DNA of 61,991 nucleotides from Candidatus Cloacimonadota bacterium (lineage in GTDB: Bacteria; Cloacimonadota; Cloacimonadia; JGIOTU-2): positions 1 to 61,991 of the forward strand of contig JAYEOL010000032.1 of assembly GCA_034722995.1 (NCBI GenBank). The letters are read 5' to 3'. Below are positions 34,822-53,753 of this stretch, in pieces. The notes beneath the pieces were generated by a model. It was not told where the DNA came from, ran no database searches, and saw nothing but the letters and a program-made list of their open reading frames with translations. The stretch's first letter is position 1, and each line of letters opens with the position of its first letter. The translations under genes and the position numbers were made by a program.

Positions 34822-35958
34822 ATGAAAATTCATGAGTATCAGGCAAAAGAAATTTTTTCAAAATACAATATACCTACACCAACTGAAATTCTATGTTATA
34901 CCCCTCAAGAAATAAAACAAGCAGCCTTAAAATCTAACGAAAATGTAATCATTAAAGCTCAGGTTCAAGTTGGCGGAAGAGGTAAAGCTGGCGGTGTTAA
35001 ACTTGCAAAAAATCCTGATGAAGCAGAAAAGATTGGCAAACAAATTTTAGGTATGGAAATCAAAGGGTTAACAGTTGAAAAAGTTCTTGTCTCTGAAGCA
35101 ATAGACATTGAAAGCGAATACTATGTTGGAATTACTAATGACAGAAATTCAAAGAGTATCGTTTTTATGGTAAGTTCCGCAGGAGGAATTGATATAGAAG
35201 AAATGGCTAAATCAACACCGGAAAAAATTTTTAAACTTTATGTTAACCCATTTGATGGAGGATTATTTGACTTTCAGGCTCGGAATCTTGCCTTCAAAAT
35301 ATTTGACGATATAAAAATAGTTAGACAAGTCTCAAAAATCATTCAAAATCTATATAGATGTTACATTGAAAATGACGCTTCATTAGCAGAAATCAATCCA
35401 TTGGTGTTAGACAAAAAAGGCAATGTTCTGGCTCTTGATGCAAAAATCAATTTTGATGATAATGCCCTTTATAGACATCCTGAAATAAAAAAAATGAGAG
35501 AAATTCTACCCGATGAAGAAAAAGAGATGGAAGCAAAATCAAAAGGATTAAGCTATATTCGTCTGAATGGTAATATTGGATGTATGGTAAACGGTGCGGG
35601 ACTGGCAATGGCTACAATGGATTTGATAAAACTTTATGGCGGAGAACCTGCAAATTTCTTAGATATTGGTGGCAGTTCAAATCCACAAAAAGTTATTGAT
35701 GCTATGAATATTTTGCTCAGCGATAAAAATGTTAAAGCTGTAATGATAAATATTTTTGGGGGAATTACTCGTTGTGACGATGTGGCAAAAGGATTGGTTA
35801 AAGCTCTAAATACACTGAAGGTTGATATTCCTATTGTAATTCGGTTAACAGGCACTAATGAAGAAGCTGCTCATAATATCCTTAAAGAAAGCAAATTGAT
35901 TCTTGCAAGTTCAATGGCAGAAGCAGCACAAACAGCAATCAATCTTACGAAAAATTAA
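34822..35958 (+). CDS. sucC: succinyl-CoA synthetase beta subunit (ADP-forming)
   Basis: MKIHEYQAKEIF, VIKAQVQVGGRGKAGGV, GNIGCMVNGAGLAMATMD. Confidence 0.92.
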   Translation: MKIHEYQAKEIFSKYNIPTPTEILCYTPQEIKQAALKSNENVIIKAQVQVGGRGKAGGVKLAKNPDEAEKIGKQILGMEIKGLTVEKVLVSEAIDIESEYYVGITNDRNSKSIVFMVSSAGGIDIEEMAKSTPEKIFKLYVNPFDGGLFDFQARNLAFKIFDDIKIVRQVSKIIQNLYRCYIENDASLAEINPLVLDKKGNVLALDAKINFDDNALYRHPEIKKMREILPDEEKEMEAKSKGLSYIRLNGNIGCMVNGAGLAMATMDLIKLYGGEPANFLDIGGSSNPQKVIDAMNILLSDKNVKAVMINIFGGITRCDDVAKGLVKALNTLKVDIPIVIRLTGTNEEAAHNILKESKLILASSMAEAAQTAINLTKN

Positions 35959-35967
35959 AATATTAAA

Positions 35968-36834
35968 ATGAGCATCTTAATTGACGAAAAAACAAAGGTT
36001 ATTGTTCAAGGTATAACAGGACGGGACGGAAGCTTTCATGCCAAACAGATGAAACAGTATGGAACAAATGTTGTTGCAGGAGTTTCTCCAGGCAAAGGTG
36101 GACAAGAAATTGATGGAATTCCTGTATACAATTCAATGAAACAAGCAGTAGATGAAACCCGCGCAAATACCTCAATAATATTTGTGCCAGCAAAATTTGC
36201 AGTGGATGCTATCTATGAAGCTGCAGATTCAGATGTAAAATTGATTGTTACTATTTCTGAAGGCATTCCCATAATTGATATGATAAAAATTACTGAATAT
36301 TTGGAACGAAAAAATATTCATCTAATCGGTCCAAATAGTCCTGGATTAATTTCCCCAGGAAAATCAAAGGTTGGAATATTACCGGCACAGATTTTCAAAA
36401 AAGGGAAAGTAGGTCTAATTTCTCGTAGTGGAACTTTAACCTATGAAATTGTAGACCATATTACAAAATCAGGACTTGGCGAATCTACCTGTATTGGAAT
36501 CGGTGGTGACCCAATTATTGGTATGAATTTTATTGATTGCTTGAAGCTATTTGAAAAAGACCCGGAAACAGAGGCAGTTGCGTTAATTGGTGAAATTGGG
36601 GGTAATGCTGAAGAATTAGCAACTCAATATGTAAAAGAATATATGACCAAACCTGTAGTAGGATTTATTGTAGGTAAAACAGCTCCTCCTGGAAAGAGAA
36701 TGGGACACGCAGGTGCAATTATTTCTGGTGGCTCTGGAACTGCTTCAGAAAAGATTGATGCATTGGAAGAGGCTGGTATCCCTGTTGCAAATCAGCCATC
36801 CGAAGTTGCAACTTTGTTGAAATCAAAATTATGA
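35968..36834 (+). CDS. sucD: succinyl-CoA synthetase alpha subunit
   Basis: [33 protein letters not shown] (phosphohistidine loop). Confidence 0.92.
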
Positions 36835-36949
36835 CTAAAGAAAATGATAAAGTAATTCCGATGTATCGGAAGAAAAAATGTATTGAGATATATTAAGAAA
36901 CTGCAAAAGGCAAAATGCTGAAAGAATAATTTTAGGAAAAGAGGCTGGA

Positions 36950-37795
36950 ATGCGAGAAATAAAAGCAAATCAAATTACAGAAATTGTGAAAAAACTCTGT
37001 ATGGATGCTAATTTCTATCTGCCGGAAGATGTAATAGACACAATAAAGCAAGCAAAAGAAAAAGAAGAATCTCAGACTGGAAAAGATGTATTTGATATGA
37101 TTCTGCAAAATATTGAAATTTCTGAGAGCGAGAAATTACCTCTCTGCCAGGATACCGGTTTTGCTGTTTTTTTCATCGAGTTGGGACAGGAAGTCCACAT
37201 TATTGGCGGAAATTTTGTAGATGCAATTAATGATGGAGTTCGTCAGGGATATAAGGAAGGCTATCTCAGAAAATCTATCGTTGATGACCCGGTGATTGAT
37301 AGGATTAACACAAAAGATAATACTCCTGCAGTAATTTATACAGACATTGTTCCTGGAGATAAAGTCAAAATTACATTTGCACCAAAAGGTGGCGGTTCAG
37401 AGAATATGAGTACAGTCAAGATGCTGAAAGCTGCTGATGGCATTGAGGGTGTAAAAGACTTTGTTGTAGATTTTGTAAAAAATGCCGGGGGTAATCCTTG
37501 TCCACCAACAATCGTGGGTATTGGATTAGGTGGAACATTTGATAAGGTTGCTCAAATTGCTAAAAAAGCTTTACTGCGTCCAATAGGTTCACGGAATCCT
37601 AATCCAAAATATTCTGAAGTTGAAAAAGAATTGTTAGAACGGATAAACAAAACTGGTGTCGGACCTATGGGCCTGGGCGGCAGAGTCACTGCTCTTGATG
37701 TGCATATAGAAACATATCCCTGTCATATCGCTACAATGCCTGTTGCAATCAACATCCAATGCCATTGCTGTCGGCATAAAGAAGCGATTATTTAA
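36950..37795 (+). CDS. class I (Fe-S) fumarate hydratase, alpha subunit
   Basis: LPLCQDTGFAVFF, FAPKGGGSENMS, CPPTIVGIGLGGT. Confidence 0.85.
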   Translation: MREIKANQITEIVKKLCMDANFYLPEDVIDTIKQAKEKEESQTGKDVFDMILQNIEISESEKLPLCQDTGFAVFFIELGQEVHIIGGNFVDAINDGVRQGYKEGYLRKSIVDDPVIDRINTKDNTPAVIYTDIVPGDKVKITFAPKGGGSENMSTVKMLKAADGIEGVKDFVVDFVKNAGGNPCPPTIVGIGLGGTFDKVAQIAKKALLRPIGSRNPNPKYSEVEKELLERINKTGVGPMGLGGRVTALDVHIETYPCHIATMPVAINIQCHCCRHKEAII

Positions 37796-37997
37796 AAGTA
37801 AAAAGGTAAAAGAAAAAGATAAAAATTAATTATTTATTAGAATGAGTTATGCAAAATAGATAAATTCACTTCATTTGTCATTCCCGTGAAAACGGGAATC
37901 CATTTAAATAAAGGATATCAGATTCCGCATCAAGTAAGGAATGACAAGAAAAAGGTATTTTGCAGATCTCATATTTATTAGAATCCATGGAGGAAAA

Positions 37998-38558
37998 ATG
38001 CCAAAAACTGTAAAATTAACAACACCTTTAACCGATGAGGATGTAAGCAAATTAAATATTGGTGATACGGTTTTGCTTTCAGGAATAATATATACAGGCA
38101 GAGATGCAGCTCATAAGCGATTGGTGGATTTGATTGAACAGGGTAAGGAATTGCCAATTGAATTGAAGGGACAGGTAATGTATTATGTCGGTCCTGCACC
38201 AGCACCGCCAGGTAAACCGATTGGTTCAGCGGGACCTACAACAAGTTATCGTATGGACTCATTAACTACTCAGTTATTAGAAAGAGGACTTAAGGCTTCA
38301 ATTGGCAAAGGACCAAGAGGACAAAATGTGATTGATTCTATGGAGAAAAATAAAGCTGTATATCTCGCTGCGGTTGGCGGTGCAGCAGCACTCATCGCAA
38401 AATCTATCAAAAAAGCAGAAATTATCGCTTATGAAGATTTGGGTGCAGAAGCTATTAGAAAATTAGAAGTTGAAGATTTTCCCTGCATCGTTGCAAATGA
38501 TATCTATGGAAATGATTTATATAAGGAAGGTGTAGCTAAATATGAAATTAGAAATTAG
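37998..38558 (+). CDS. class I fumarate hydratase, beta subunit
   Basis: LSGIIYTGRDAAHKRL...GPTTSYRMD. ATG at 37998 is preceded by GGAGG; the ORF-track start is at 37941. Terminates with TAG. Confidence 0.85.
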   Translation: MPKTVKLTTPLTDEDVSKLNIGDTVLLSGIIYTGRDAAHKRLVDLIEQGKELPIELKGQVMYYVGPAPAPPGKPIGSAGPTTSYRMDSLTTQLLERGLKASIGKGPRGQNVIDSMEKNKAVYLAAVGGAAALIAKSIKKAEIIAYEDLGAEAIRKLEVEDFPCIVANDIYGNDLYKEGVAKYEIRN

Positions 38559-39450: not shown

Positions 39451-39783
39451 ATGAAATATTGGGAAAAACCGTTTGGTAAAGAAAAGCCAAAAATCGTTTC
39501 AGGTGAAATCCATATCATCAAAGAGAGATGCAAAGGCTGTAACTTTTGTATTGAATATTGCCCAAGAGATGTATTAGAAGTCTCAGAAGAATTTAATGAA
39601 AAAGGATATCATCCACCAAAAGTTGCAAAACCTGAGATGTGTACCTTTTGTGGGCTTTGCGAACTAATCTGTCCTGACTTTGCGATTTTTGTTACTGAAT
39701 TAAAAGAAACTCCGACTGGGGACCATCCACTTCAGCCAGGTACTTTTGGTGGAAAGGAGGAAAAAATTGTTCAAGCAAAGTAA
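39451..39783 (+). CDS. second 2-oxoacid:ferredoxin oxidoreductase, delta (2x[4Fe-4S]) subunit
   Basis: CKGCNFCIEYCP and CTFCGLCELICP. Confidence 0.8.
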   Translation: MKYWEKPFGKEKPKIVSGEIHIIKERCKGCNFCIEYCPRDVLEVSEEFNEKGYHPPKVAKPEMCTFCGLCELICPDFAIFVTELKETPTGDHPLQPGTFGGKEEKIVQAK

Positions 39784-40921
39784 ACTATACGGTGAATTTT
39801 TTATGCAGGGTGATATCGCTTGTGCAGAAGGAGCACTTTCTGTAGGATGTCGCTTTTTTGGCGGATATCCTATTACCCCAGCTTCTGAAATTGCTGAACG
39901 AATGGCATTCCGTTTACCACTCTTAGATGGCGTTTTTATCCAATTTGAAGATGAAATCGCATCAATGTCTTCTATTCTTGGTGCATCCTGGGCAGGTGTA
40001 AAATCAATGACTGCTACTTCTGGACCTGGAGTTTCTCTTATGTTAGAAAACATCGGGCTTGGTATGATGATGGAAGTTCCTTGCGTTGTGGTAAATGTTC
40101 AACGGGGCTCGCCTTCTACTGGATTGCCTACATCCTGGGGGCAAGCAGATATGATGCAGGCTCGTTGGGGCTCTCATGGTGATTATGGAAGTATCTCACT
40201 TTGTCCAAAATCACCACAAGAATTTTTTGATTTGACTATTGTTGCATTCAACTATGCTGAAAAATATCGTCTCCCTGTTTTTATATTGTCAGATGCTATT
40301 GTCGGTCATATGACAGAAAAAGTGGTTATTCCTCCCGTTGAAGAAATTAAACTGGTTGAAAGAAAATACACCAAGAAAAAGCCCAAGGATTACCTCCCTT
40401 ATGAAGTTGTGGAAGATTTAATTCCAGAGTTCGCAAAGGCAGGTGATGGATATCGTTATCATACAACTGGGCTTACGCATGATGAACGAGGTTACCCTGT
40501 TATGACAGAAGAATGCCAAAAAATATGTGTTACCCGCCTTGTTGAAAAAATAAAGAAACATGCAGATGAAATTATCATGCTTGAAGAAAGAGATATTGAT
40601 GACGCTGATGTAGTTGTTGTTGCTTATGGAATCACTGCGCGAACAGTTGTTCCAGCTATTGAAAAAGCAAAGAAGAAAGGTATAAAAGTTGGATTATTAC
40701 GACTTATAACAGTCTGGCCATTCCCTGAAAAAAGAATAAGGAAATTAGCACAAAAGGTGAAAGGGTTTGTCGTGCCTGAGATAAATTTAGGACAGATTGT
40801 TCTGGAAGTTGAGCGTTGTGCTGCAAAATATGTAACTACTAAATCAATAACACATCCTGGTGGAGGGATTCACAATTTCAATGATATAATCAAGGCTATT
40901 GAAGAGGTGGCTTATGAATAA
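39767..40921 (+). CDS. second 2-oxoacid:ferredoxin oxidoreductase, alpha subunit
   Basis: About 60 percent identical by eye to the 17607-18764 product (GGYPITPASEI, TATSGPGVSLM). A TTG at 39767 lies 6 nt after AGGAGG. The ORF-track ATG is at 39746. Confidence 0.8.
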   Translation: MFKQSKLYGEFFMQGDIACAEGALSVGCRFFGGYPITPASEIAERMAFRLPLLDGVFIQFEDEIASMSSILGASWAGVKSMTATSGPGVSLMLENIGLGMMMEVPCVVVNVQRGSPSTGLPTSWGQADMMQARWGSHGDYGSISLCPKSPQEFFDLTIVAFNYAEKYRLPVFILSDAIVGHMTEKVVIPPVEEIKLVERKYTKKKPKDYLPYEVVEDLIPEFAKAGDGYRYHTTGLTHDERGYPVMTEECQKICVTRLVEKIKKHADEIIMLEERDIDDADVVVVAYGITARTVVPAIEKAKKKGIKVGLLRLITVWPFPEKRIRKLAQKVKGFVVPEINLGQIVLEVERCAAKYVTTKSITHPGGGIHNFNDIIKAIEEVAYE

Positions 40922-41852
40922 TGAAAATATGCAAGCAATAGTAGAACGACCTTCCGATGAAGAACAGCACCATCCAATGGAAGACCTGCTCAGAATGGAT
41001 AGAATGCCACATATCTGGTGCCCTGGATGTGGACTTGGCTCCTGTTTAACTGCATTTGTAGAAGGATTAATTAAAGCTGATGTCAATTTTGATAAGGTTG
41101 CAGTCGTTTCTGGTATTGGCTGCACAGGAAGAGTAGCCGGATATATTAAACTTGATTCCTATCACACTACGCATGGTAGAGCAATCCCTTTTGCAACAGG
41201 CATGAAATTAGCAAATAGAGATTTAACTGTTGTTGTTTTTTCCGGAGATGGTGATTTATTTGCTATTGGTGGCAACCATCTCATTCATGCTGCAAGAAGA
41301 AATGTAGACATTAATGTAATTTGTGTAAACAATTTTATCTATGGAATGACTGGTGGACAGAATGCACCGACAACTCCATTAAAGGCATATAGTTCCACAG
41401 CTCCTTATGGAAATTATGAGCAACCATTCAATTTAGTTGGAGTTGCTGCTGCCTCGGGTGCATCCTATGTCGCCAGATGGACCGCATTACATTTAAGAAG
41501 ATTAACGGATTCTATCGCCGAAGCTGCAAACAAGAAAGGATTTTGCTTTATTGAAATTGTATCACCTTGTGCAACGGTATTCGCAAGAAGAAATATGGGC
41601 GGAACAGGACTGGATTTACTTAAAGAATTCCAGAAAAGATCAATTATTGATCACTCTGCTGATCCAACTAAAATCCCAATAGATATGGACGGTAAGATTA
41701 TCTGTGGTGAATTTATAAATGAAGATAAACCAACATTCTGGGAAAATGTCCAAAGTGGAATCAAAAGTAAAGTAGAAAAAGAGGTAGAATGGGAAGAGAT
41801 GCAAAGAAAATTGAGACAAAAAGTAACCAAAAAAAGCAAATCTATGGAATAA
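40914..41852 (+). CDS. second 2-oxoacid:ferredoxin oxidoreductase, beta subunit
   Basis: WCPGCGLG, GIGCTGR, GDGDLFAIGGNH. ATG at 40914 follows GAGGTGG and overlaps the alpha-subunit stop codon. Confidence 0.85.
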   Translation: MNNENMQAIVERPSDEEQHHPMEDLLRMDRMPHIWCPGCGLGSCLTAFVEGLIKADVNFDKVAVVSGIGCTGRVAGYIKLDSYHTTHGRAIPFATGMKLANRDLTVVVFSGDGDLFAIGGNHLIHAARRNVDINVICVNNFIYGMTGGQNAPTTPLKAYSSTAPYGNYEQPFNLVGVAAASGASYVARWTALHLRRLTDSIAEAANKKGFCFIEIVSPCATVFARRNMGGTGLDLLKEFQKRSIIDHSADPTKIPIDMDGKIICGEFINEDKPTFWENVQSGIKSKVEKEVEWEEMQRKLRQKVTKKSKSME

Positions 41853-42008
41853 AGGCTCAACAAACGTTCTATAAAAATATTGAGTATTTAGTTCCATACC
41901 AATAAAATTGTGGTATCCTGCATCTATATTAAAAATGATGTCATCTCTAAATAATTTCATCACGATATATCAGGATTGGCTCTTGCTTATTCAGATTAGG
42001 AGTAATTT

Positions 42009-42545
42009 ATGAATGAACTTAAAGTAAAAATATCTGGCTTTGGTGGACAAGGTATTATTCTTTCTGCATATATTGTGGGTAAAGCTGCTTCAATCTATGA
42101 TGGTAAGCATGCTTCTATGACACAAGCCTATGGACCCGAGGCAAGAGGTGGTGCTTGTAGTTCTCAAGTGGTTATATCTTCTTATGAAATTGACTATCCG
42201 CTTGTAGATACCGCAGATGTATTAATTGCTCTATCCCAAGAAGGATATGATACATTCTTCCCAATTTTAAAAAAAGATGGAATTTTACTTTACGACTCAG
42301 ACTTAGTCACACATCTTAAATCTAATACAAAGGTAATACCAAAACCAATACCAGCCACAAGAATAGCAGAAAATTTAGGCAAAACTATCGTGGCTAACAT
42401 TGTGATGCTTGGCTTTGCAACTACTCAAGCCAAAATTGCTACACCTGAAGCAATGAAAAAATCCATAAAAGAATCCGTTCCGCAAAAATTTGTTGATTTG
42501 AATTTAACGGCATTTCAGATTGGATTGGAATATAAAGTGGATTAA
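42009..42545 (+). CDS. second 2-oxoacid:ferredoxin oxidoreductase, gamma subunit
   Basis: ISGFGGQGIILS...AYGPEARGG. Confidence 0.85.
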   Translation: MNELKVKISGFGGQGIILSAYIVGKAASIYDGKHASMTQAYGPEARGGACSSQVVISSYEIDYPLVDTADVLIALSQEGYDTFFPILKKDGILLYDSDLVTHLKSNTKVIPKPIPATRIAENLGKTIVANIVMLGFATTQAKIATPEAMKKSIKESVPQKFVDLNLTAFQIGLEYKVD

Positions 42546-42547
42546 CT

Positions 42548-42955
42548 ATGGCATATAAAATTACAGGAAAAAATATAAAAGATGATATAGTGGAAAAGGT
42601 TGAGGAAATATCCGGACAAAATGTATTTGAATGCTATCAATGCGGAAACTGTTCGGCAGGTTGCCCTGTTGTTGATTATATGGATATTGCTCCACATCAA
42701 ATTATGCGCCTTGCTCAGTTAGGAGCAACTGAGGAAATCTTAAACTGTGAAACAATATGGATATGTTCTGCTTGTCTGCAGTGCTCAACCCGATGTCCAA
42801 AAGGAATTGATGTTGCAAAAGTTATGGAAGCTTTCCGCACAATAAATTTGCGAAAAAGACTGGCACCATTAAATCCTGATGAAATTGCCGAGAAAGACCT
42901 AAAAGAACTGCCTCCGATTGCTTTGGTTGGTGCATTTAGAAAAATGACAGGATAA
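42548..42955 (+). CDS. hdrC: heterodisulfide reductase subunit C-like 2x[4Fe-4S] protein
   Basis: CYQCGNCSAGCP and CSACLQCSTRCP. Starts 3 nt after the OFOR gamma gene. Confidence 0.8.
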   Translation: MAYKITGKNIKDDIVEKVEEISGQNVFECYQCGNCSAGCPVVDYMDIAPHQIMRLAQLGATEEILNCETIWICSACLQCSTRCPKGIDVAKVMEAFRTINLRKRLAPLNPDEIAEKDLKELPPIALVGAFRKMTG

Positions 42956-42960
42956 AGAAA

Positions 42961-43085
42961 CGCCACAGATGCACGGAGAACACAGAGTAAGATAATTAAA
43001 TATGCTCCATTTTAAGAAAAATAAGCATTGTGGAAATATTGAATATTAATTTTAAATAATTCTCTGTGCCTCTGTGTCTCCGTGG
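42961..43085. repeat. MITE-like element between hdrC and hdrB
   Basis: Arms cgccacagatgcacggagaacacagag (42961-42987) and ctctgtgcctctgtgtctccgtggc (43062-43085) are imperfect inverted copies of the GCCAC-(CACNGAG)n family, around a 74-nt AT-rich core. Confidence 0.55.
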
Positions 43086-43110
43086 CAAACATAACTACAA
43101 GGAAAAAATT

Positions 43111-43989
43111 ATGAATCTACCTTATTATCCCGGCTGCACATTAAAAACAAATGCAAAGAATTTTGAAGATTCTGCAATGAGAGTAATGGAAGTTTTAGAT
43201 TATCCATTAAAAGAGATGGAAAATTGGGTCTGCTGTGGCACTGTATTTTCAATGACAAGTGATGACCTGATGCTCCAATTAGGTGCAATTCGCAATCTTT
43301 TACGAGCCGAAGAACAAAATCTGAAGGAATTGATAGTTCTATGTAGTATGTGCTACAATACTTTGAAAAGAGCAAAACAATTCATTACTGAAGATGAAGA
43401 GAATCTAAACAAGGTTAATGACCTGATGTATAAAGAAAACATCCGTTATAAAGGAACAGTTGATATTCATCATCTTTTAAGCATACTTCGTGATAGAGTA
43501 ACTTTTGATGCAATAAAAGAGAAAGTCAAAAAGCCGTTATCCTCGCTAAAAATTGGGGGATATTACGGATGTTTTCTTGTAAGGCCAAAAGAATTTGCAA
43601 TAGATGATTTTGAAGACCCAAGCATTATTGAGGACTTGCTTACATTATTAGGTGCAGATGGTATTGAATTTCCATATCGTCTGGAATGCTGTGGTGCTTA
43701 CCAAACTGTAACAAAAAAAGATGTAACTGCTATGCGAACTTATGAGATAATCAATTCTGCTAGAAGGGCAGGATGCGAAGCAATAGTTACATCTTGCCCA
43801 TTATGTGCGTTTAATCTTGACCAAAGACAGAAAGAAACCGCAAAAGAATTTGTAGAATTTGAACATATCCCTGTCTTTTACTTTACAGAATTGATGTCTA
43901 TTGCATTAGGCTGTGGCTGGGATGAAAATTGGACAAAACTTCATTATGTTAATCCTGAACCATTACTAAAAGAAAAAGGTTTAATATAA
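43111..43989 (+). CDS. hdrB: heterodisulfide reductase subunit B-like protein with two CCG domains
   Basis: PGC...WVCCG...LCSMC and YGC...ECCG...SCPLC. ATG at 43111 follows AAGGAAAA; the ORF-track start at 43066 lies inside the repeat. Confidence 0.8.
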   Translation: MNLPYYPGCTLKTNAKNFEDSAMRVMEVLDYPLKEMENWVCCGTVFSMTSDDLMLQLGAIRNLLRAEEQNLKELIVLCSMCYNTLKRAKQFITEDEENLNKVNDLMYKENIRYKGTVDIHHLLSILRDRVTFDAIKEKVKKPLSSLKIGGYYGCFLVRPKEFAIDDFEDPSIIEDLLTLLGADGIEFPYRLECCGAYQTVTKKDVTAMRTYEIINSARRAGCEAIVTSCPLCAFNLDQRQKETAKEFVEFEHIPVFYFTELMSIALGCGWDENWTKLHYVNPEPLLKEKGLI

Positions 43990-44719: not shown

Positions 44720-47113
44720 ATGAAACGAATCGGAGTTTTTATTTGCCATTGTGGTGAAAATATTGCTGATACTGTTGATGTAGAAAGGGTTGCCAAAGAA
44801 ATCGGCAATTATAGCGGAGTTGTTTATAGCACTGATTATACTTTTATGTGTTCTGACCCCGGGCAGAAAATTATAAAAGATGCAATAAAAGAGAAAAAAT
44901 TGGATGGGGTAATTGTAGCAAGTTGTTCACCCACAATGCATGAAGCAACTTTTAGGAAAGCGGCCGCATCTGCCGGATTAAATCCATATCAATGTGAAAT
45001 AGCCAATATTCGTGAGCAATGCAGTTGGGTTCATTCTAACAAAGAAGAGGGTACAAAAAAAGCAATTCTTATCATAAAATCTATGATTGAAAAGCTAAAA
45101 TTGAATGAATCATTATACCCAATATCTTCACCGACAAATAAGAATGTGTTAATAATAGGTGCTGGAATTGCCGGGATACAAGCGGCATTGGACATTGCTG
45201 ATGCAGGACATAAAGTTTTTTTAGTGGAAAGGAGACCATATATTGGTGGGCATATGATTCAATTATCAGTAACCTTTCCAACTCTTGATTGCTCGCAATG
45301 TATTTTAACACCCAAAATGGTTCAAGTTGACCAGAGTGAGAATATTGACCTCTTCGTTAATAGCGAAATAGAATCAATTGATGGTGCTGTGGGTAATTTT
45401 AAGGTCAAAATTAAGAGAAAAGCACAATATATAAATCCTGATATATGCACTGGTTGTGGGGATTGTATAGATGTTTGTCCAGTACTTGTTCCGGATGAAT
45501 ACGAGGAAGGGCTTTCATATCGCAAAGCAGTTTATATGTCGTTTGCACAGGTGATTCCATATACATATACATTGGATATTGATAATTGTTTGGGATTAAA
45601 CCCTATTGCTTGTGGGAAATGCAAAGATGCCTGTAAGGAAGATGCTATCAATTATGACGCAAAAGATGAAATTATTGAAAAAGATGTTGGGGCAGTTATT
45701 GTTGCAACTGGATATGATTTATATCCTATGGAAAATATCGGAGAATATGGTTATGGAAAATATCCAGATGTGGTTAGTGGACTGCAGTTTGAAAGACTTA
45801 TCTTTGCGGTTGGTCCATCAGGTGGAAAAATGCTACGACCATCGGATGGAAAGCCGGTAAAGGAAATTGCTTTTATCCAATGTGCTGGATCACGGGACCC
45901 GGAGAGACATCTTTCTCATTGCTCAAAAATATGCTGTATGTATACAGCCAAACAGGCAAAGATGTTTAAAAATAAGGTGCCGGATGGACAGTCATATATC
46001 TTTTATATTGATATTAGAGCTACTGGAAAAGATTATGAAGAGTTTATTCAAACAGCTCAATTGGAGCAAAAGTTAGTTTATATCCGAGGTAAGGTCTCCC
46101 GTATTTATAAAGAAAATGGTAAGATGATTATCAATGCTTTTGACACTCTCTCCGGCAAGAAAATTGAAGCAAAAGTGGATATGGTAGTTCTCGCATTAGG
46201 AATGATACCAAGTTTTGGAACTGATGAACTGGCAAGAAAACTTAATCTTTCAGAAGGAACATCTGGATTTCTGACAGAAGCACATCCTAAATTAAGACCG
46301 GTAGAAACCGTTAATCCTGGATTTTTCCTTGCCGGAACATGCCAGGCGCCAAGAGATATACCTGAAACTGTTGCACAGGCCTCTGGGGCGGCTTCAAAAG
46401 CGTTATCATTATTGGCACATGATACTATAGAAAAATCGCCAGTTGTTGTGAAAGTTGATGTTGAAAAATGTACCGGATGTGGAGATTGTGTTAAGAAATG
46501 TCCTTTTGATGCAATTACTATTGATAAAGTTCAAAATATCGCGGTAATTGATGAAATGAAATGTAAAGGATGTGGCTTTTGTATTCCAGAATGCCCTGAG
46601 GATGCATTAGAACAAAAGAACCTCTCTGACCGGCAAATCTATAATATGATAGATGGCATATTAGAGAAGGATAAGCAGATTGTAAAAGGTAAAGAATTTG
46701 AGCCTAAAATTGTGTGCTTTTTTAGTAATATTGGTGCTTATCAGGCCGCAGACCTTGCTGGTATTGGAAGAATGGAATATAAACCAAATGCTTTAATAAT
46801 TAGACTTCTTTCAATTTCAATGTTAGACGACAAGCACATTTTATATGCTTTAAAAAATGGTGCTGATGGCGTGCTTATCAGCGGAAGTCATCCGGGTGAA
46901 TCACCTTATCCTGGAGCAAGTAAGAAAACAAAAGAAAGAGTAGATGCTCTTAAAAATAAAATAAAAGAGGCAGGACTAAATCCTGAGAGAATAAAATTAG
47001 AATGGTATGCAGGAAGACAAGCAAAAGGATTCGCTGGTTTCGTAGATACATTTGTTGAATATCTTAAAAAGCAGGGTCCGGTCCAGTCAGAAAATTGGAA
47101 GACTTTAAATTAG
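44720..47113 (+). CDS. hdrA: heterodisulfide reductase subunit A-like flavoprotein fused to an MvhD-like C-terminal domain
   Basis: IGVFICHCGENIA, IIGAGIAGIQAALD (FAD), CSQCILTPKM, two ferredoxin inserts (CTGCGDCIDVCP; CTGCGDCVKKCP, CKGCGFCIPECP). The C-terminal 137 aa align to MvhD. Terminates with TAG. Confidence 0.85.
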   Translation: MKRIGVFICHCGENIADTVDVERVAKEIGNYSGVVYSTDYTFMCSDPGQKIIKDAIKEKKLDGVIVASCSPTMHEATFRKAAASAGLNPYQCEIANIREQCSWVHSNKEEGTKKAILIIKSMIEKLKLNESLYPISSPTNKNVLIIGAGIAGIQAALDIADAGHKVFLVERRPYIGGHMIQLSVTFPTLDCSQCILTPKMVQVDQSENIDLFVNSEIESIDGAVGNFKVKIKRKAQYINPDICTGCGDCIDVCPVLVPDEYEEGLSYRKAVYMSFAQVIPYTYTLDIDNCLGLNPIACGKCKDACKEDAINYDAKDEIIEKDVGAVIVATGYDLYPMENIGEYGYGKYPDVVSGLQFERLIFAVGPSGGKMLRPSDGKPVKEIAFIQCAGSRDPERHLSHCSKICCMYTAKQAKMFKNKVPDGQSYIFYIDIRATGKDYEEFIQTAQLEQKLVYIRGKVSRIYKENGKMIINAFDTLSGKKIEAKVDMVVLALGMIPSFGTDELARKLNLSEGTSGFLTEAHPKLRPVETVNPGFFLAGTCQAPRDIPETVAQASGAASKALSLLAHDTIEKSPVVVKVDVEKCTGCGDCVKKCPFDAITIDKVQNIAVIDEMKCKGCGFCIPECPEDALEQKNLSDRQIYNMIDGILEKDKQIVKGKEFEPKIVCFFSNIGAYQAADLAGIGRMEYKPNALIIRLLSISMLDDKHILYALKNGADGVLISGSHPGESPYPGASKKTKERVDALKNKIKEAGLNPERIKLEWYAGRQAKGFAGFVDTFVEYLKKQGPVQSENWKTLN

Positions 47114-47194
47114 AATAAATTTCTGTTAGCAAAGATAAGAAATTGATAAATTCTTCCGAGTTTTTATAAAGAAAATTTATATGGAGGATTGATA

Positions 47195-47887
47195 ATGTCA
47201 GAGTCAGAAAAAGATAAAATGGTTAAAATCTATATTTTGGGCGAGGGCTTTGATGTGCCTGCTGGCTCAACTATTGTTACTGCAATGGAATATGCCGGAT
47301 TTCAATTAACAACTGGTGTTGGCTGTAGAGAAGGCTTTTGCGGCGCTTGTGCAACCCTATATCGTGAAAAAGGTGACTATAAATTACAGGCAGGTCTTGC
47401 CTGCCAAACTGTGGTTTCTGACGGAATGTATATCGCACAGATACCATTTGTGCCTGCTGAAAAACCTATCTATGACATTACAAAACTAACGCCTGATATT
47501 GATTCTATTAAAACACTTTATCCAACTGTATTCCGTTGCGTATCTTGTAATACTTGCACTAAAGCCTGCCCACAAGATATAGAGGTTATGGACTATGTTC
47601 AAGCATTAATAAAAGGAGATATTGCAAAGGCAGCAGATTTGTCATTTGATTGCATTCGCTGTGGACTTTGTGCATTAAGATGTCCCTCTGAAATTGTACA
47701 ATACAATGCCGGAATTTTAGCTCGTCGCCTTACAGGAAGGTATCTCCTCAAAAAAAGTCCTGACCTTGAACCCCGTGTGAAAGAAATCGCTGAAAGAAAA
47801 TTTGATAAAGAACTTGAAAAATTAATGAGAACAGACAAAGAAAAAATAAAAAAATTATATTATGAAAGAGAAATAAAACTCGGATAG
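47195..47887 (+). CDS. SdhB/FrdB-like iron-sulfur protein ([2Fe-2S] plus two CxxCxxCxxxCP motifs)
   Basis: GCREGFCGACATLY...LAC, then CVSCNTCTKACP and CIRCGLCALRCP. ATG at 47195 lies 7 nt after GGAGG. Terminates with TAG. Confidence 0.75.
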   Translation: MSESEKDKMVKIYILGEGFDVPAGSTIVTAMEYAGFQLTTGVGCREGFCGACATLYREKGDYKLQAGLACQTVVSDGMYIAQIPFVPAEKPIYDITKLTPDIDSIKTLYPTVFRCVSCNTCTKACPQDIEVMDYVQALIKGDIAKAADLSFDCIRCGLCALRCPSEIVQYNAGILARRLTGRYLLKKSPDLEPRVKEIAERKFDKELEKLMRTDKEKIKKLYYEREIKLG

Positions 47888-48033
47888 ATTTAATGAAAGA
47901 TTGTCCCGACCTGTCGGGATCCCGATTCATCGGGGAAGGATTGGAAATGCTAAATTTTGCAAAAATTTTAAGATCTATACGAACCTTTTAATTTTTATAA
48001 ATCTTTAAAAAAAATTATTAATTAGGAGAGGCT

Positions 48034-49701
48034 ATGTATCCAGAATATATGCAAGAATCAATAAAAAATGTTGAGAGAACAAGACCTGCAAGGTTAAAAT
48101 TAGCAAAGTCAGGAAAGCAATTATTCCCTCGTATGTCCGCAGAAGAAAGGGATGTAGTTCTAAACAAATTTCACCCAGATTACAAAACAAATGCAAGACG
48201 GGAAATAAGAATAGGTCCAAATAAAGGAGAAAGAATAACAACAAAAGTAGCTGAACTTCTTGAGACCTACTCAAGAATTAATCCAGCAGACTTTGATTTA
48301 TCCCATCCTGATTATGAGACGGATGTGTTGGTAATAGGTGCTGGTTCTGCAGGATTCTCTGCTTCTATACTTGCTTCAGAAAATGGGGCAGATGTAATTC
48401 TCGTTACTAAACTCAGAGTTGGAGATTCAAACTCAATGATGGCTCAAGGTGGCATTCAAGCTGCAGTCAGACCTGACGATTCACCTGTTTTACATTATTT
48501 AGATGTTATTGGTGGAGGTCATTTTGATAATAAACCCGAGTTAGTTAACGCATTGGTTTCAGATGCTCCGGATGCAATAAAATGGTTGCAAGACATGGGG
48601 GTTATGTTTGATAGAAATCCTGATGGAACAATGTTTACGAAATCGGGTGGTGGAACTTGCAGACCACGAATGCACTCTGCCAGAGACTATACTGGTGCAG
48701 CTATCTGCAGAACTCTGCGTGATGAGGTTTATAACAGACCTGATAAGATTAAAATCCTTGAACATCAACCTGCTGTGGAGCTAATAAAAGATAGTGATGG
48801 ACGCGTCGCAGGTGCGGTCCTTTATCATCTTGAAAATAAAGAATATTTTACTGTTAAAGCCAAGGCTACAATCCTTTCTACAGGTGGGTTTGGCAGACTG
48901 CACATACAGGGATTTGAAACCACAAATCACTACGGCGCTACCGCAGATGGTCTGGTAATGGGCTATAGGGCTGGCGCAAACTTATTATATATGGATTCTG
49001 TCCAGTATCATCCAACCGGAGCTGTATATCCACTGCAAATTATGGGATTTCTATGCACAGAAAAATTGCGCGGAATGGGTGCACAGCCTGTAAATAAAAA
49101 TGGTGAACTCTTTGTATATCCTCTTGAACCAAGAGATATAGAGGCTTCATCTTTCATACGGGAATGTACAGAGAGAGGAAACGGAATAAAAACTCCATCT
49201 GGAAATGTAGGAATCTGGCTGGATACTCCACTTATTGAACAGATAAATGGCGAAGGAGCAATTAAAGAAAATCTACCTGCTATGTTAAGACAGTTTGGTC
49301 GCTTTGATGTGGACATAACAAAAGAGCCGATGCTCGTTTATCCTACTTTGCATTATCAAAACGGCGGAATAGAAATAAACGACCATTGCGAAACAAAGTT
49401 GCCTGGACTTTATGTTGCTGGCGAGGCTTCTGGCGGGGTGCATGGTAGAAATAGATTAATGGGCAATTCACAATTAGATTTAATAGTATTTGGCAGAAGA
49501 GCTGGTAAATATGCGACAGAATATGCAAAAGGTGCAAAACTTGGCAAATTGAATTTAGACCATGTTTACGAATATGAAAAAGAAGTAGAAAAATTTGGTA
49601 TTGATAGGAAAAATATCTCCCCAATGGTTCTACCTGACTATATTCCAGAAGCAGTGAAAAAGAGACAGTATACTGCCCACTATGAAGGAACGCTTAGATA
49701 A
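48034..49701 (+). CDS. fumarate reductase / succinate dehydrogenase flavoprotein-family protein with ~95-aa N-terminal extension
   Basis: VLVIGAGSAGFSAS (FAD), SMMAQGGIQAA, VQYHPTG, CTEKLRGMGA, GGVHGRNRLMGNSQLDLIVFGRRAG. Confidence 0.8.
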   Translation: MYPEYMQESIKNVERTRPARLKLAKSGKQLFPRMSAEERDVVLNKFHPDYKTNARREIRIGPNKGERITTKVAELLETYSRINPADFDLSHPDYETDVLVIGAGSAGFSASILASENGADVILVTKLRVGDSNSMMAQGGIQAAVRPDDSPVLHYLDVIGGGHFDNKPELVNALVSDAPDAIKWLQDMGVMFDRNPDGTMFTKSGGGTCRPRMHSARDYTGAAICRTLRDEVYNRPDKIKILEHQPAVELIKDSDGRVAGAVLYHLENKEYFTVKAKATILSTGGFGRLHIQGFETTNHYGATADGLVMGYRAGANLLYMDSVQYHPTGAVYPLQIMGFLCTEKLRGMGAQPVNKNGELFVYPLEPRDIEASSFIRECTERGNGIKTPSGNVGIWLDTPLIEQINGEGAIKENLPAMLRQFGRFDVDITKEPMLVYPTLHYQNGGIEINDHCETKLPGLYVAGEASGGVHGRNRLMGNSQLDLIVFGRRAGKYATEYAKGAKLGKLNLDHVYEYEKEVEKFGIDRKNISPMVLPDYIPEAVKKRQYTAHYEGTLR

Positions 49702-49704
49702 CAA

Positions 49705-50331: not shown

Positions 50332-50342
50332 TGGAGGAATAA

Positions 50343-50810
50343 ATGCCAAAACCGAAGATAGCTTTTTATTGGTGTGCTTCTTGCGGTGGATGTGAAGAAG
50401 CCATAATTGACTTAAATGAAGATATACTTAAAGTAGCTGATTCAGTTAATATTGTCTTCTGGCCCTGCGCTATGGATTTCAAATATGCTGATGTACGAAA
50501 AATGAAAAAAGATGAAATAGATGTCACATTCATAAATGGAGCTATTCGCACAGATGAACAAGAAGAAATGGCAAAACTACTTAGAGAAAAATCAAAAATA
50601 ATTGTATCTTTTGGAGCTTGTTCACAATTAGGAGGAATCCCAGGATTAGCTAATTTTTGGGATAGAGAAACCATATTTAATTCTTCTTATGGCAAGAATT
50701 GTCCCTCTATTGATAATCCAGAAGGAATCACACCTCAGACAGTTTCAAAAGTGCCTGAAGGGGAATTAACCTTGCCTGCCTTTCATAACACAGTAAAGAC
50801 TACTGACTAG
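50343..50810 (+). CDS. mvhG: [NiFe] hydrogenase small subunit (MvhG-like), N-terminal part ending at an in-frame TAG
   Basis: FYWCASCGGCEEAIIDL, WPCAMD, GACSQLGGIPG. The TAG at 50808-50810 is in frame with the next ORF. Confidence 0.75.
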   Translation: MPKPKIAFYWCASCGGCEEAIIDLNEDILKVADSVNIVFWPCAMDFKYADVRKMKKDEIDVTFINGAIRTDEQEEMAKLLREKSKIIVSFGACSQLGGIPGLANFWDRETIFNSSYGKNCPSIDNPEGITPQTVSKVPEGELTLPAFHNTVKTTD

Positions 50811-50819
50811 GTTATTGAT

Positions 50820-51344
50820 GTGGATTATTATCTTCCAGGTTGTTCTCCAGCCCCATACTTAACGATGAAAGCTATCAATACAATTTTATCTGGTGAATTA
50901 CCTCCAAAAGGCACAGTCCTTGCTCCAAATAAAGCTTTATGTGAAACTTGCTCTCTTAATGAAACCAAGCCGGAAAAATTATCAATAGAAAAGATAAATA
51001 GAATTTCTCTTGTTGAGGCAGACCCGGAAAAATGCTTCCTTGCACAAGGAATTATTTGTATGGGACCAGTAACTCGCTCTGGATGCAGCGAAGAGGGAGA
51101 TGGCAGATGCATTAAAGCTAATATGTCCTGTCGTGGATGTTACGGACCAATCTCTGAGGTAAAAGATGTAGGTGCCAAGATGATTTCTGCTCTTGCCTCT
51201 ATTCTCGGTCTTGAGGGTGAAGAAAATATGAGCGAGGAAGAAGTAGAAAAACTAATGTCCCAAGTTGTTGACCCAGCTGGTACTTTCTATCGCTTTTCTT
51301 TGTCAAAATCACTGTTGATGAGGAAAAGGAATGATAAACATTGA
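50820..51344 (+). CDS. mvhG: [NiFe] hydrogenase small subunit (MvhG-like), C-terminal part
   Basis: The same frame continues directly from codon 50811 (VIDVDYYLPGCSP...). Distal and medial cluster cysteines: CETC, CMGPVTRSGC, CRGCYGP. No RBS upstream of the GTG at 50820. Confidence 0.7.
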   Translation: MDYYLPGCSPAPYLTMKAINTILSGELPPKGTVLAPNKALCETCSLNETKPEKLSIEKINRISLVEADPEKCFLAQGIICMGPVTRSGCSEEGDGRCIKANMSCRGCYGPISEVKDVGAKMISALASILGLEGEENMSEEEVEKLMSQVVDPAGTFYRFSLSKSLLMRKRNDKH

Positions 51345-51521: not shown

Positions 51522-52982
51522 ATGAAAAAAATATCCATAAATCCAATTACCAGATTAGAGGGACATGGCAAGATTGAAATCTTCCTTGATGATGACGGAA
51601 ATGTTAGTAATGCATATCTGCAAGTACCCGAGTTACGAGGCTTTGAACAATTTTGTATTGGTAGGCCCGTTGAAGAACTGCCAAGAATAACTCCCCGTAT
51701 TTGTGGCGTTTGCCCTATGGCACATCATATGGCATCTACTAAAACTGTTGATGCAGTATATAATATAAAACCAACTCCAACTGCTGTAAAATTACGCAAT
51801 TTAGTTTATGATGCTTATATTATGGAAGACCATCTATTGCACTTCTTCTTTTTAGGGGGACCTGACTTTATTGTAACCCCATCTGCTCCACCGGAAGAAA
51901 GAAATATCCTTGGTGTTATTGGAAAAGTCGGATTAGAAATCGGCACAAAAGTTATTGCCACAAGAAGAAAAATCAGGGAAATTGTAACTCATCTTTCTGG
52001 CAGAATTATCCATCCAGTTGGAGGACTTCCCGGCGGTGTTTCTAAGAATTTAATTGAAGAAAAAAGAAAAGAATTCCTAAAGTATGCAAAACAAGCATTA
52101 GAATTTGCCCAAGAATCCATTAAAATCTTTAATGATATAGTTCTTAAAAATGATAAATATTTGGATTTGATTGTCGGAGATATTTATAAACATAAGACCT
52201 ATTATATGGGTTTAGTAGACGAAAACAACAAAGTTAATTTCTATGATGGGAAGGTTAGGGTTGTAGACCCAGAAGGCAAGGAAATTCTAAAATTTGAAGC
52301 AAAAGATTATCTAAAATACATTGCAGAACATGTTGAGCCCTGGAGTTATATGAAATTTCCATTTCTTAAAAAAATTGGTTGGAAAGGATTTGTTGATGGG
52401 AAAAATAGCGGTGTGTATCGCGTTGCCCCTCTTGGAAGATTGAATGCCTCTAATGGCATGGCAACTCCTATTGCACAAGTTAAATATGAAAAAATGTATG
52501 ATAAATTAGGCGGAAAACCTGCTCATAATACACTTGCCTTCCATTGGGCAAGATTGATTGAAGTAATCTATGCTGCTGAACATATGGTTGAGTTATTAAA
52601 AGATAAAACTATTACTTCACCAGATATTCGTAATCTTCCTACTGGGGTTCCAAATGAAGGTGTTGGTATAACAGAAGCAGCTCGTGGAACTCTATTCCAT
52701 CATTATAAAACCGATGAAAATGGCATTGTTACTGCCGTTAATCTGCTCGTTGCAACTGTTGCGAATGCAGCTGGAATGTCAATGTCAATTGCAAAAGCGG
52801 CTCAGAAACTTATAAAAAATAGTAAAGTTAATGATGGCTTGCTTAATATGGTAGAAATGGCATTCCGAGCTTATGACCCCTGCCTTGCCTGTGCTACTCA
52901 TTCTTTGCCGGGTAAAACTCCTCTTATTGTGAATATACATAATAATGCTGGGAATATAATAAAAACTATTAGGAGAGACTGA
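51522..52982 (+). CDS. mvhA: [NiFe] hydrogenase large subunit (group 3c / MvhA-like)
   Basis: N-terminal RLEGHGKI and RICGVCPMAHH. C-terminal DPCLACATH followed by a 25-aa cleavable tail. Confidence 0.88.
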   Translation: MKKISINPITRLEGHGKIEIFLDDDGNVSNAYLQVPELRGFEQFCIGRPVEELPRITPRICGVCPMAHHMASTKTVDAVYNIKPTPTAVKLRNLVYDAYIMEDHLLHFFFLGGPDFIVTPSAPPEERNILGVIGKVGLEIGTKVIATRRKIREIVTHLSGRIIHPVGGLPGGVSKNLIEEKRKEFLKYAKQALEFAQESIKIFNDIVLKNDKYLDLIVGDIYKHKTYYMGLVDENNKVNFYDGKVRVVDPEGKEILKFEAKDYLKYIAEHVEPWSYMKFPFLKKIGWKGFVDGKNSGVYRVAPLGRLNASNGMATPIAQVKYEKMYDKLGGKPAHNTLAFHWARLIEVIYAAEHMVELLKDKTITSPDIRNLPTGVPNEGVGITEAARGTLFHHYKTDENGIVTAVNLLVATVANAAGMSMSIAKAAQKLIKNSKVNDGLLNMVEMAFRAYDPCLACATHSLPGKTPLIVNIHNNAGNIIKTIRRD

Positions 52983-53300: not shown

Positions 53301-53753
53301 ATGAAGACACTATTTCTTGGACTTGGCAATCCGATTCTTACTGATGATGGAGTCGGAATTCGTATCGCAAAAGAAATTGGAGAAAAATGTAAAAATGTTG
53401 ATGTGGCTGAAGCAAGTGCGGCTGGTTTTAGAATTATAGATGAAATTATTGGCTATGACAGATTAATAATTATTGATTCAATAAAAACTGGCAAAGCAAG
53501 ACCTGGAACTCTTCATAAATTTTTAGTAAACGATTTTGCAAAAACTCTCCATCTTTCAACTCCTCATGATATTAGCCTTTTTGAAGCTTTTAAAGTAGTG
53601 AGAAAAGAAAATGTAAAACTCCCCTCACAAATTGAAATCTATGCTATGGAAGTGGAAGACACCTCAACCTTTTCTGAGAAGTGCACAGAACTTGTTGAAT
53701 CTGCAATTCCAAAAACCGTTCAACAAATTATGAAAGAGCAAAATCTGACATAA
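53301..53753 (+). CDS. hydrogenase maturation endopeptidase (HybD/FrhD family)
   Basis: LFLGLGNPILTDDGVG ... IIIDS ... HD. Confidence 0.8.
   Translation: MKTLFLGLGNPILTDDGVGIRIAKEIGEKCKNVDVAEASAAGFRIIDEIIGYDRLIIIDSIKTGKARPGTLHKFLVNDFAKTLHLSTPHDISLFEAFKVVRKENVKLPSQIEIYAMEVEDTSTFSEKCTELVESAIPKTVQQIMKEQNLT

Follow-up and report, generated by a model that had tools for sequence, protein, structure and literature searches.

A cysteine-less MvhD domain fused to a second HdrA paralogue in Cloacimonadota

The DNA analysed here (61,991 nt of contig JAYEOL010000032.1, GenBank assembly GCA_034722995.1; hereafter the window) comes from a Candidatus (Ca.) Cloacimonadota bacterium of the GTDB lineage JGIOTU-2. 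It carries a metabolic gene cluster in which an hdrA gene stands between hdrCB and genes for a fumarate-reductase-like protein pair, followed by the hydrogenase genes mvhG and mvhA (Table 1). This hdrA gene, hdrA1::mvhD*, encodes HdrA1, which joins the core of HdrA, a flavin-based electron-bifurcating subunit, to a C-terminal MvhD domain, here called MvhD*. Alignments confirmed that MvhD* has lost all five cysteines of its family, including the four presumed ligands of the [2Fe-2S] cluster.

Table 1 Features of the window around hdrA1::mvhD*, with plus-strand positions counted from the first letter of the window.
Feature	Position	Strand	Basis or remark
Succinyl-CoA synthetase beta/alpha and fumarate hydratase alpha/beta, upstream part of the metabolic cluster	34822..38558	+	
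2-oxoacid:ferredoxin oxidoreductase (kor) alpha, beta, gamma	39746..42545	+	
hdrC-like, two 4Fe-4S motifs	42548..42955	+	
hdrB-like, two CCG domains	43066..43989	+	
hdrA1::mvhD*, fusion of 797 amino acids (aa), full HdrA core and cysteine-less MvhD domain	44720..47113	+	single open reading frame (ORF), Pfam domains
HdrA DCSQC motif (Cys191/Cys194), conserved pair adjoining the flavin	45287..45301	+	aligned to NDCSIC of 5odc_A; role as stated in PMC13580544
MvhD* domain, residues 661-797, MvhD fold, all five family Cys replaced	46700..47110	+	alignment, Pfam, model
SNIG replacing CNWC; S9 at the former ligand position, G12 at the former Cys16 position	46724..46735	+	alignment
S38 replacing Cys of the CSG motif	46811..46813	+	alignment
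GSHPGESPY replacing GCHxGDCHY; S63 and S68 replace Cys, H64 and E67 kept	46883..46909	+	alignment
Codons of the replaced positions	S9 46724-26; G12 46733-35; S38 46811-13; S63 46886-88; S68 46901-03		
75-nt spacer, deletion junction; relatives have hdrA2 and mvhD (about 2.7-3.1 kb)	47114..47188		blastn against G040 and L003; gene maps
FrdB/TfrB-N-like iron-sulfur protein, 2Fe-2S and two 4Fe-4S motifs, 232 aa	47189..47887	+	
TfrA/FrdA-like flavoprotein	48034..49701	+	FAD_binding_2, E = 4.2e-77
mvhG, hydrogenase small subunit, in-frame TAG at 50808-50810	50343..51344	+	relatives have CAG/Gln
mvhA, [NiFe] hydrogenase large subunit, intact 486-aa ORF	51522..52982	+	Pfam NiFeSe_Hases
Hydrogenase maturation protease	53301..53753	+	

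Positions 46700-47113 (plus strand) translate into the 137 aa quoted in a first-pass annotation of this DNA, plus a stop codon, and form the C-terminus of the 797-aa ORF. Pfam FlpD (PF02662) matches residues 664-784 over profile positions 1-121 of 123 (E = 3.7e-33; 114.6 bits against a cut-off of 22.3), preceded by a complete HdrA architecture. When PDB sequences were searched with MvhD* using phmmer, the six distinct sequences at E ≤ 1 were all MvhD or ElpC; the best match, 5odc_D (E = 1.3e-21, 36% identity), aligns without gaps (query 1-129 to chain 5-133). An AlphaFold2 (AF2) model from a 64-sequence alignment reached a mean predicted local distance difference test score (pLDDT) of 89.5 and a predicted template-modelling score (pTM) of 0.86, and Foldseek matched it to MvhD in 5odc_D (template-modelling (TM) score 0.88, root-mean-square deviation 1.3 Å) and 7bkb_F (TM 0.91) and to ElpC in 8rvu_F (TM 0.88). 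Pfam score, gapless 5ODC alignment and predicted fold all bear out the earlier view of an MvhD-like domain fused to HdrA.

Relative to 5odc_D, FCCNWC has become FFSNIG, MCSG has become LSIS and GCHLGDCHY has become GSHPGESPY, and the five family-conserved cysteines of MvhD/FlpD (CxxC, CSG, GCH and DCH positions) now read S, G, S, S and S. Because this alignment is gapless, the cysteines have been replaced, not shifted; gapless alignments to four solved MvhD/ElpC sequences likewise rule out a shift. The motif changes listed in the first-pass annotation (CNWC to SNIG, CSG to SIS, GCHxGDCHY to GSHPGESPY) stand exactly as given, as does its statement that all canonical cysteines are lost. Domain positions 9, 38, 63 and 68 are cysteine in 98-100% of 56 canonical MvhD sequences, and position 12 is a less conserved, extra cysteine (93%). 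Since this variable second cysteine of the CxxC motif corresponds to Cys16 of MvhD, described as an additional conserved cysteine between the cluster and the flavin adenine dinucleotide (FAD) (PMC13580544), we take the other four positions as the cluster ligands. The sole remaining cysteine, residue 666 in KIVCFF, which had been noted before as non-canonical, is real; it is also present in normal Cloacimonadota MvhD (KIVCFLCKWC), and so was inherited and is not a new ligand.

All five cysteines are kept in 129 of the 150 best representatives of a 1.84-billion-protein library (best local alignments, 155 rows). The other 21 comprise six sequences too short to judge, 11 lacking only the second CxxC cysteine and four lacking others; the MvhD*-type loss occurs among the 150 in a single 100-aa fragment. 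Database proteins of similar length keep all five in 117 of 119 cases, with one single change and one partial orthologue that reads S, G, S, S, S. The HdrA loci of other phyla, including Bacteroidota, Geobacteraceae, Planctomycetota and Spirochaetota, yielded 59 domain hits, and all 59 retain the five cysteines (15 of the 79 loci, mostly on cut contigs, gave no domain hit); fusion alone therefore does not make the cluster dispensable. Two of the proteins found deserve separate mention. The partial orthologue, P0158 (215 aa, 88% identical), is annotated 'hydrogenase iron-sulfur subunit', a name that does not fit a cysteine-less domain, and is assigned in the public record to a Ca. Marinimicrobia metagenome-assembled genome, which may reflect binning. 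P0010 (890 aa) contains a sevenfold repeat with a spacing of about 135 aa; each copy is 41-44% identical to domain residues 37-77 and lacks the cysteines.

In the text passages that the literature searches reached, neither a cysteine-less MvhD nor two HdrA paralogues in Cloacimonadota are described; the supplementary gene tables of PMC8542988 could list the two HdrA genes. Judged by its sequence, MvhD* is a cluster-less pseudo-MvhD within the known HdrA::MvhD fusion and MvhD family, lineage-wide and under selection.

The S/G/S/S/S pattern is shared by seven other Cloacimonadota genomes (L001, L002/G141, L003/G200, L004/G102, L005/G191, G144 and G040, the last of the same genus), which answers a question raised in the first-pass annotation, namely whether orthologues share the loss. 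Four full-length metagenomic protein clusters, 68-88% identical across the domain, show it too; some of these clusters, and of two further fragments with the loss, may stem from the same organisms as the genomes. A loss common to seven other genomes, four clusters and two fragments rules out a sequencing or assembly artefact.

Relatives have the syntenic gene order kor alpha/beta/gamma, hdrC, hdrB, X, FrdB-like gene, TfrA-like flavoprotein gene, mvhG, mvhA and protease gene, in which X takes one of three forms. State A, one 651-aa hdrA and a separate normal mvhD, was found in G055, G031 and G100, that is, in all three inspected loci among genomes with a normal-type match only. State B, hdrA1::mvhD* followed by hdrA2 and then a normal mvhD, is found in all seven other genomes with MvhD*. 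State C, hdrA1::mvhD* alone, is found only in the present window. Seven of 201 sampled Cloacimonadota genomes carry MvhD*, the window's own included, and in each of the six others the normal MvhD is encoded 2.0-2.5 kb away on the same contig, after the 651-aa HdrA2. Genes for MvhAG accompany MvhD* in all seven other genomes.

These arrangements bear on the idea that MvhD* is a docking adaptor for a different redox partner, such as the FrdB-like 2Fe-2S/4Fe-4S protein, whose clusters would replace the lost relay; this is the different wire suggested in the first-pass annotation. The FrdB-like gene does lie directly 3' of hdrA1::mvhD* in the window, and archaeal MvhD and ElpC act as adaptors for differing donor modules (PMC12350162). 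In relatives with two paralogues, however, the FrdB-like gene comes after the normal mvhD, not after MvhD*, and the FrdB-like/flavoprotein pair (68-82% identity) is present in all three inspected relatives that have only a normal MvhD; the pair is thus independent of MvhD*, and we consider an adaptor role improbable.

HdrA1 and HdrA2 are about 64-65% identical. Set against nine HdrA::MvhD fusions of other phyla, HdrA1 (eight sequences) is sister to Cloacimonadota HdrA2 (10 sequences) with a support of 100 in the Shimodaira-Hasegawa-like approximate likelihood ratio test (SH-aLRT); the internal topologies of the two clades mirror each other, and State-A genomes are nested in the HdrA2 clade. 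MvhD* groups with Cloacimonadota stand-alone MvhD (SH-aLRT 100), with a stem of 2.72 substitutions per site and short internal branches. Both are quick trees rooted on a chosen outgroup, and the long branch leaves the exact placement uncertain. At the level of these gene trees, they show that MvhD* arose once, after an hdrA-mvhD duplication inside Cloacimonadota, and HdrA1::MvhD* is on this phylogeny a Cloacimonadota-specific paralogue of the normal hdrA2 and mvhD pair. The simplest history would be such a duplication within the phylum, after which one copy would have fused, shed its cluster during a phase of rapid change and stayed conserved from then on; different lineages would later have lost one copy or the other.

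Across the eight genomes, pairwise ratios of nonsynonymous to synonymous divergence (dN/dS) of MvhD* are 0.036-0.172 (28 pairs), without frameshifts or stops, beside 0.034-0.112 for the HdrA core and 0.064-0.215 for the neighbouring normal MvhD (4 of 15 pairs with unsaturated dS). The MvhD* alignment has 85 invariant columns of 137, including SISML and GSHPGESPYPGA, despite synonymous divergence that reaches 1.1-1.8. Such codon comparisons show that MvhD* has been under purifying selection since its origin. They also weigh on a further reading, that MvhD* is a decaying relic, a pseudo-domain without a function of its own and heading for loss. All ligands are indeed gone, the stem branch is very long, the whole hdrA1::mvhD* gene is absent in some relatives and neighbouring hydrogenase parts are being lost in the window's genome; yet the low dN/dS, the intact frames and the many invariant columns make a relic very improbable.

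The replaced residues are part of a wider change. MvhD* keeps 28 and alters 17 of the 45 positions that are at least 80% conserved in the 56 canonical MvhD; the altered positions gather in the CxWC, CSGR, CH..CH, GN and SAxE motifs, and most are invariant among the eight MvhD* sequences. From this pattern of conservation, the pocket of MvhD* is remodelled on a preserved scaffold. One could imagine that the resulting Ser/His/Glu constellation binds a different metal or cofactor: the four serines, His64 and Glu67 are invariant, and serine is an isosteric replacement at all four ligand positions. No new cysteine or histidine has been gained, however, and the histidine after the last cysteine has become proline. 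We also know of no [2Fe-2S] site with all-oxygen ligation, and regard such a binding site as barely credible.

The putative docking residues are kept. H64 and E67 of MvhD*, invariant in all eight sequences, are the equivalents of MvhD His68 and Asp71, which contact an unknown ligand held by the HdrA cysteine pair (PMC13580544). HdrA1 core residues 3-648 align to 5odc_A, the HdrA of 5ODC (E = 5e-197), and retain the DCSQC pair, all cluster cysteine motifs and the equivalents of E356 and K409; functional roles have been described for these two residues (PMC12054007) and for the flavin-side cysteine pair (PMC13580544). The best family model for the 797-aa fusion is NCBIfam NF040770, an HdrA2-type HdrA::MvhD fusion, at 924.2 bits, under its cut-off of 1100.

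The window's own genome has lost the normal pair. In blastn comparison with G040, about 3.1 kb holding a PDDEXK_3-like ORF, mvhD and hdrA2 corresponds to about 89 nt in the window, with flanks that are 93% and 86% identical. The single FlpD match in this draft genome (96.88% complete, 75 contigs) is MvhD*, and an HdrA2 query recovers a single HdrA, the HdrA1 fusion; an hdrA2-mvhD pair was not found at this level of completeness, the locus itself being contiguous. The genome also has a single copy of mvhG, in which a TAG stands where L003 and G040 have glutamine and splits the gene into a 155-aa frame and a 174-aa frame (GTG start at 50820); the two halves may be made separately and assemble. 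Contigs from four sequencing runs bridge the hdrA/FrdB-like junction and also span the TAG, with no difference there; small shares of the window in 18 further runs were not used in this comparison. Three short joins in such contigs (47613 to 50601, 49733 to 50262 and 49761 to 50033, with sides of 21-22 letters) were taken as matches to other organisms or as repeats, not as variants.

Recoding of the mvhG TAG was ruled out: TAG ends three of 31 long ORFs in the window, hdrA among them, and no PylS scored above its cut-off (best 18.6 bits against 178). The nonsynonymous divergence (dN) of mvhGA between the window and L003 gave no sign of relaxed selection, being 0.14-0.16 as for other genes, and the remaining cluster genes align to their orthologues from end to end. 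Compared with the same-genus relative, the window has end branches of 0.014 versus 0.025 for HdrA1 and 0 versus 0.046 for MvhD*. As these branches are not lengthened and mvhGA lack extra divergence, the losses of hdrA2-mvhD and mvhG look recent. The hydrogenase genes of G040 are themselves divergent, with a dN of 0.18-0.33 to the window and L003. Its mvhG and mvhA differ from the window's by a dN of 0.18-0.22, whereas its neighbouring genes differ by 0.02-0.08, and about 1.5 kb of extra DNA lies between the two (L116 = G040:C55, 1028-5165); replacement or transfer in that lineage could account for this.

With these losses in view, a decoy or regulatory arm can be weighed, in which MvhD* would still dock MvhAG without conducting and would limit or gate coupling to H2. 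Scaffold residues and fold are kept and MvhD* co-occurs with MvhAG in the seven other genomes, but the altered family positions lie around the former cluster, facing the partner clusters, and the fusion is retained in a genome with a broken mvhG, which leaves this role quite improbable.

We favour the reading, with a probability of roughly 0.55, that MvhD* descends from MvhD, has no cluster and persists as a structural module of the second HdrA paralogue, HdrA1; to go by archaeal complexes, its role is probably structural rather than that of an electron wire. Two of the options raised in the first-pass annotation, a purely structural role and the absence of electronic coupling to the hydrogenase, agree best with what was observed, and the paralogue pair, the losses and the broken mvhG support both. 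The [2Fe-2S] cluster of MvhD is described as the last relay before the bifurcating FAD of the partner protomer. MvhD* would preserve the HdrA arm architecture and its docking contacts, that is, the histidine and acidic residue touching the ligand on the HdrA cysteine pair, but would be electrically silent, such that hydrogenase electrons could not enter through the HdrA1 arm. In the State B relatives, the H2 wire would be the neighbouring HdrA2 and MvhD with MvhAG, and HdrA1 would work next to it, forming the silent half of a heterodimer with HdrA2 or a separate complex with HdrBC. In the window's genome, the Hdr/TFR-like fumarate-reductase module appears uncoupled from H2, because hdrA2-mvhD is lost and the only mvhG has a nonsense codon; from the gene content, we infer that nothing there can wire MvhAG to the HdrA flavin. 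The HdrA1-HdrBC-TFR-like module would then have to draw on ferredoxin or on a hydride donor acting at the flavin, or be starting to decay.

Several points weigh against this structural reading. The role itself is transferred from archaeal complexes, and the reading gives no account of what a silent arm would bring. Selection on MvhD* was measured mostly in genomes that still have the normal pair. Retention of the fold is partly built in, because the AF2 input alignment contained normal MvhDs, and the four ligands are presumed from conservation and from the published statement on Cys16. All four runs behind the junction and the TAG come from a single study and may include the run from which the assembly was made. 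Finally, the stop in mvhG could be an early sign that the entire module is decaying in this lineage.

A less likely alternative is that HdrA1::MvhD* is loaded at its flavin by a two-electron hydride donor such as NAD(P)H, and that the superfluous wire was lost while the domain stayed for the sake of the arm. HdrA1 keeps all flavin and cluster motifs, and in the window's genome the loss of the H2 parts has left HdrA1, HdrBC and the TFR-like pair intact. The literature describes HdrA::MvhD fusions that work with F420H2 and no hydrogenase, loading at the flavin being a proposal for the Methanosarcina HdrA2 fusion (PMC12054007, PMC5296606). That characterised HdrA2 still has its Fe2S2 motif (PMC5296606), however, the domain hits from other phyla all keep their cysteines, and no donor-binding domain or motif was identified.

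The structural reading could be extended to two input modes on one Hdr/fumarate-reductase core, which we think possible but rather unlikely. HdrA2, MvhD and MvhAG would feed the bifurcating flavin from H2, and HdrA1::MvhD*, with its electrically silent arm, would form either the inactive half of a heterodimer with HdrA2 or an H2-independent complex loaded by a hydride donor or ferredoxin; the window's genome would be a natural mutant with the H2-independent mode only. If HdrA1 forms a separate complex, its flavin would reduce fumarate and supply ferredoxin for 2-oxoglutarate synthase.

Among characterised systems, MvhD and ElpC of the archaeal Mvh-Hdr, Fdh-Hdr-Fmd and Elp-Hdr complexes (5ODC D, 7BKB F, 8RVU F) are full-length homologues of MvhD*, at 36% identity and with the same predicted fold (TM 0.88-0.91), and share with it scaffold residues, the His/acidic pair and association with HdrA. 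MvhD* differs in lacking the four presumed ligands and Cys16, in 17 of 45 altered family positions and in being covalently fused to HdrA; MvhD relays electrons by definition, which MvhD*, to judge from its residues, cannot do. HdrA2 of Methanosarcina acetivorans (HdrA2B2C2, PMC5296606; 'type Ia' HdrA class, PMC12054007) has the same domain order of HdrA core and C-terminal MvhD, and both it and HdrA1::MvhD* are encoded near hdrB and hdrC. The M. acetivorans protein has an Fe2S2 motif in its MvhD domain, with a consistent iron content (PMC5296606), whereas HdrA1::MvhD* lacks the motif, and our trees place its fusion as a separate event inside Cloacimonadota.

The closest match to the gene cluster is the Hdr-Mvh-TFR-OGOR cluster described for Ca. 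Celaenobacter (PMC8542988), the source of locus L003, which has the same synteny as the window, from sucCD and fumarate hydratase through kor, hdrCB, hdrA and the TFR-like pair to mvhGA. It has been proposed to drive a reverse tricarboxylic acid cycle with H2 (PMC8542988, also PMC12590816). The portions of these two papers drawn on here treat Hdr as one HdrABC and mention neither two HdrA paralogues nor a cysteine-less MvhD. Unlike that cluster, the window lacks hdrA2-mvhD and has a stop in mvhG, leaving the H2 link missing. Cofactor-less subunits kept as structural parts of an Hdr arm have precedents in ElpA, an FdhA homologue without molybdopterin (PMC12350162), and in non-catalytic Molybdop proteins beside type II hdrA (PMC12054007). 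Those subunits belong to donor modules and still carry electrons, or hand them on, through other clusters, whereas in MvhD* the lost cofactor is the last relay itself.

A naturally cluster-free MvhD offers a ready-made system for separating the structural role of MvhD (arm and gating) from its electron-relay role, and MvhD* is suited to this, being under purifying selection, keeping the His/acidic contact residues and sitting on an HdrA with an intact flavin-side cysteine pair. The three locus states form a natural comparative knock-out series: the normal pair by itself, the pair together with the dummy, and the dummy by itself beside a broken mvhG. For annotation, anyone who infers an H2-driven Mvh-Hdr metabolism from a Cloacimonadota genome should establish which MvhD it encodes.

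Other genes of the cluster are less sharply assigned. The flavoprotein is matched best in NCBIfam by TfrA (E = 2.6e-101; 339.9 bits against a cut-off of 718), with SdhA/FrdA and NadB models close behind, and mvhA by VhuA (420.6 bits, under the cut-off of 800). Measured against the Hdr-linked [NiFe] hydrogenase MvhAGD (group 3c), the genome has an intact large subunit, an interrupted small subunit and, as its single FlpD match, a domain without the cluster cysteines. No CCG domain was found in the 232-aa FrdB-like protein, unlike in TfrB of the thiol:fumarate reductase TfrAB, which combines its iron-sulfur part and CCG domains in one chain; the only CCG protein of the cluster is the separate HdrB.

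Some further features are scattered over the locus. A PDDEXK_3 (GxxExxY-type) gene lies at 44129-44572 between hdrB and hdrA; G040 has it in the same place at 95% identity and, in the gap from mvhD to the FrdB-like gene, a further copy of 41% identity, and L003 has it at neither place. The 640-nt spacer between the flavoprotein gene and mvhG (49702-50342) contains a remnant that looks like part of a 23S rRNA-intervening-sequence (four-helix-bundle) protein, namely its C-terminal half, with a weak, sub-cut-off Pfam match (E = 0.0016, 19.1 bits); in the sequencing runs this spacer has a local spike in depth and several loose contig ends, as with a repeated element. Directly downstream of the hydrogenase genes, 54721-57462 encodes a 913-aa Eco57I/MmeI-type restriction-modification methylase fusion.

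Many MvhD homologues of another Cloacimonadota family, often several per genome, contain one in-frame TGA (for example G137:C178:11084-11470 and G049:C6:42115-42501) and may be selenocysteine-containing, VhuD-like proteins. Finally, an Armatimonadota contig (L075, 97-5355) is the only one of 74 non-Cloacimonadota loci with a FrdB-like gene (58% identity) adjoining hdrC, hdrB and hdrA; its hdrA is 64% identical over the first 235 aa, and the contig ends before any MvhD domain.

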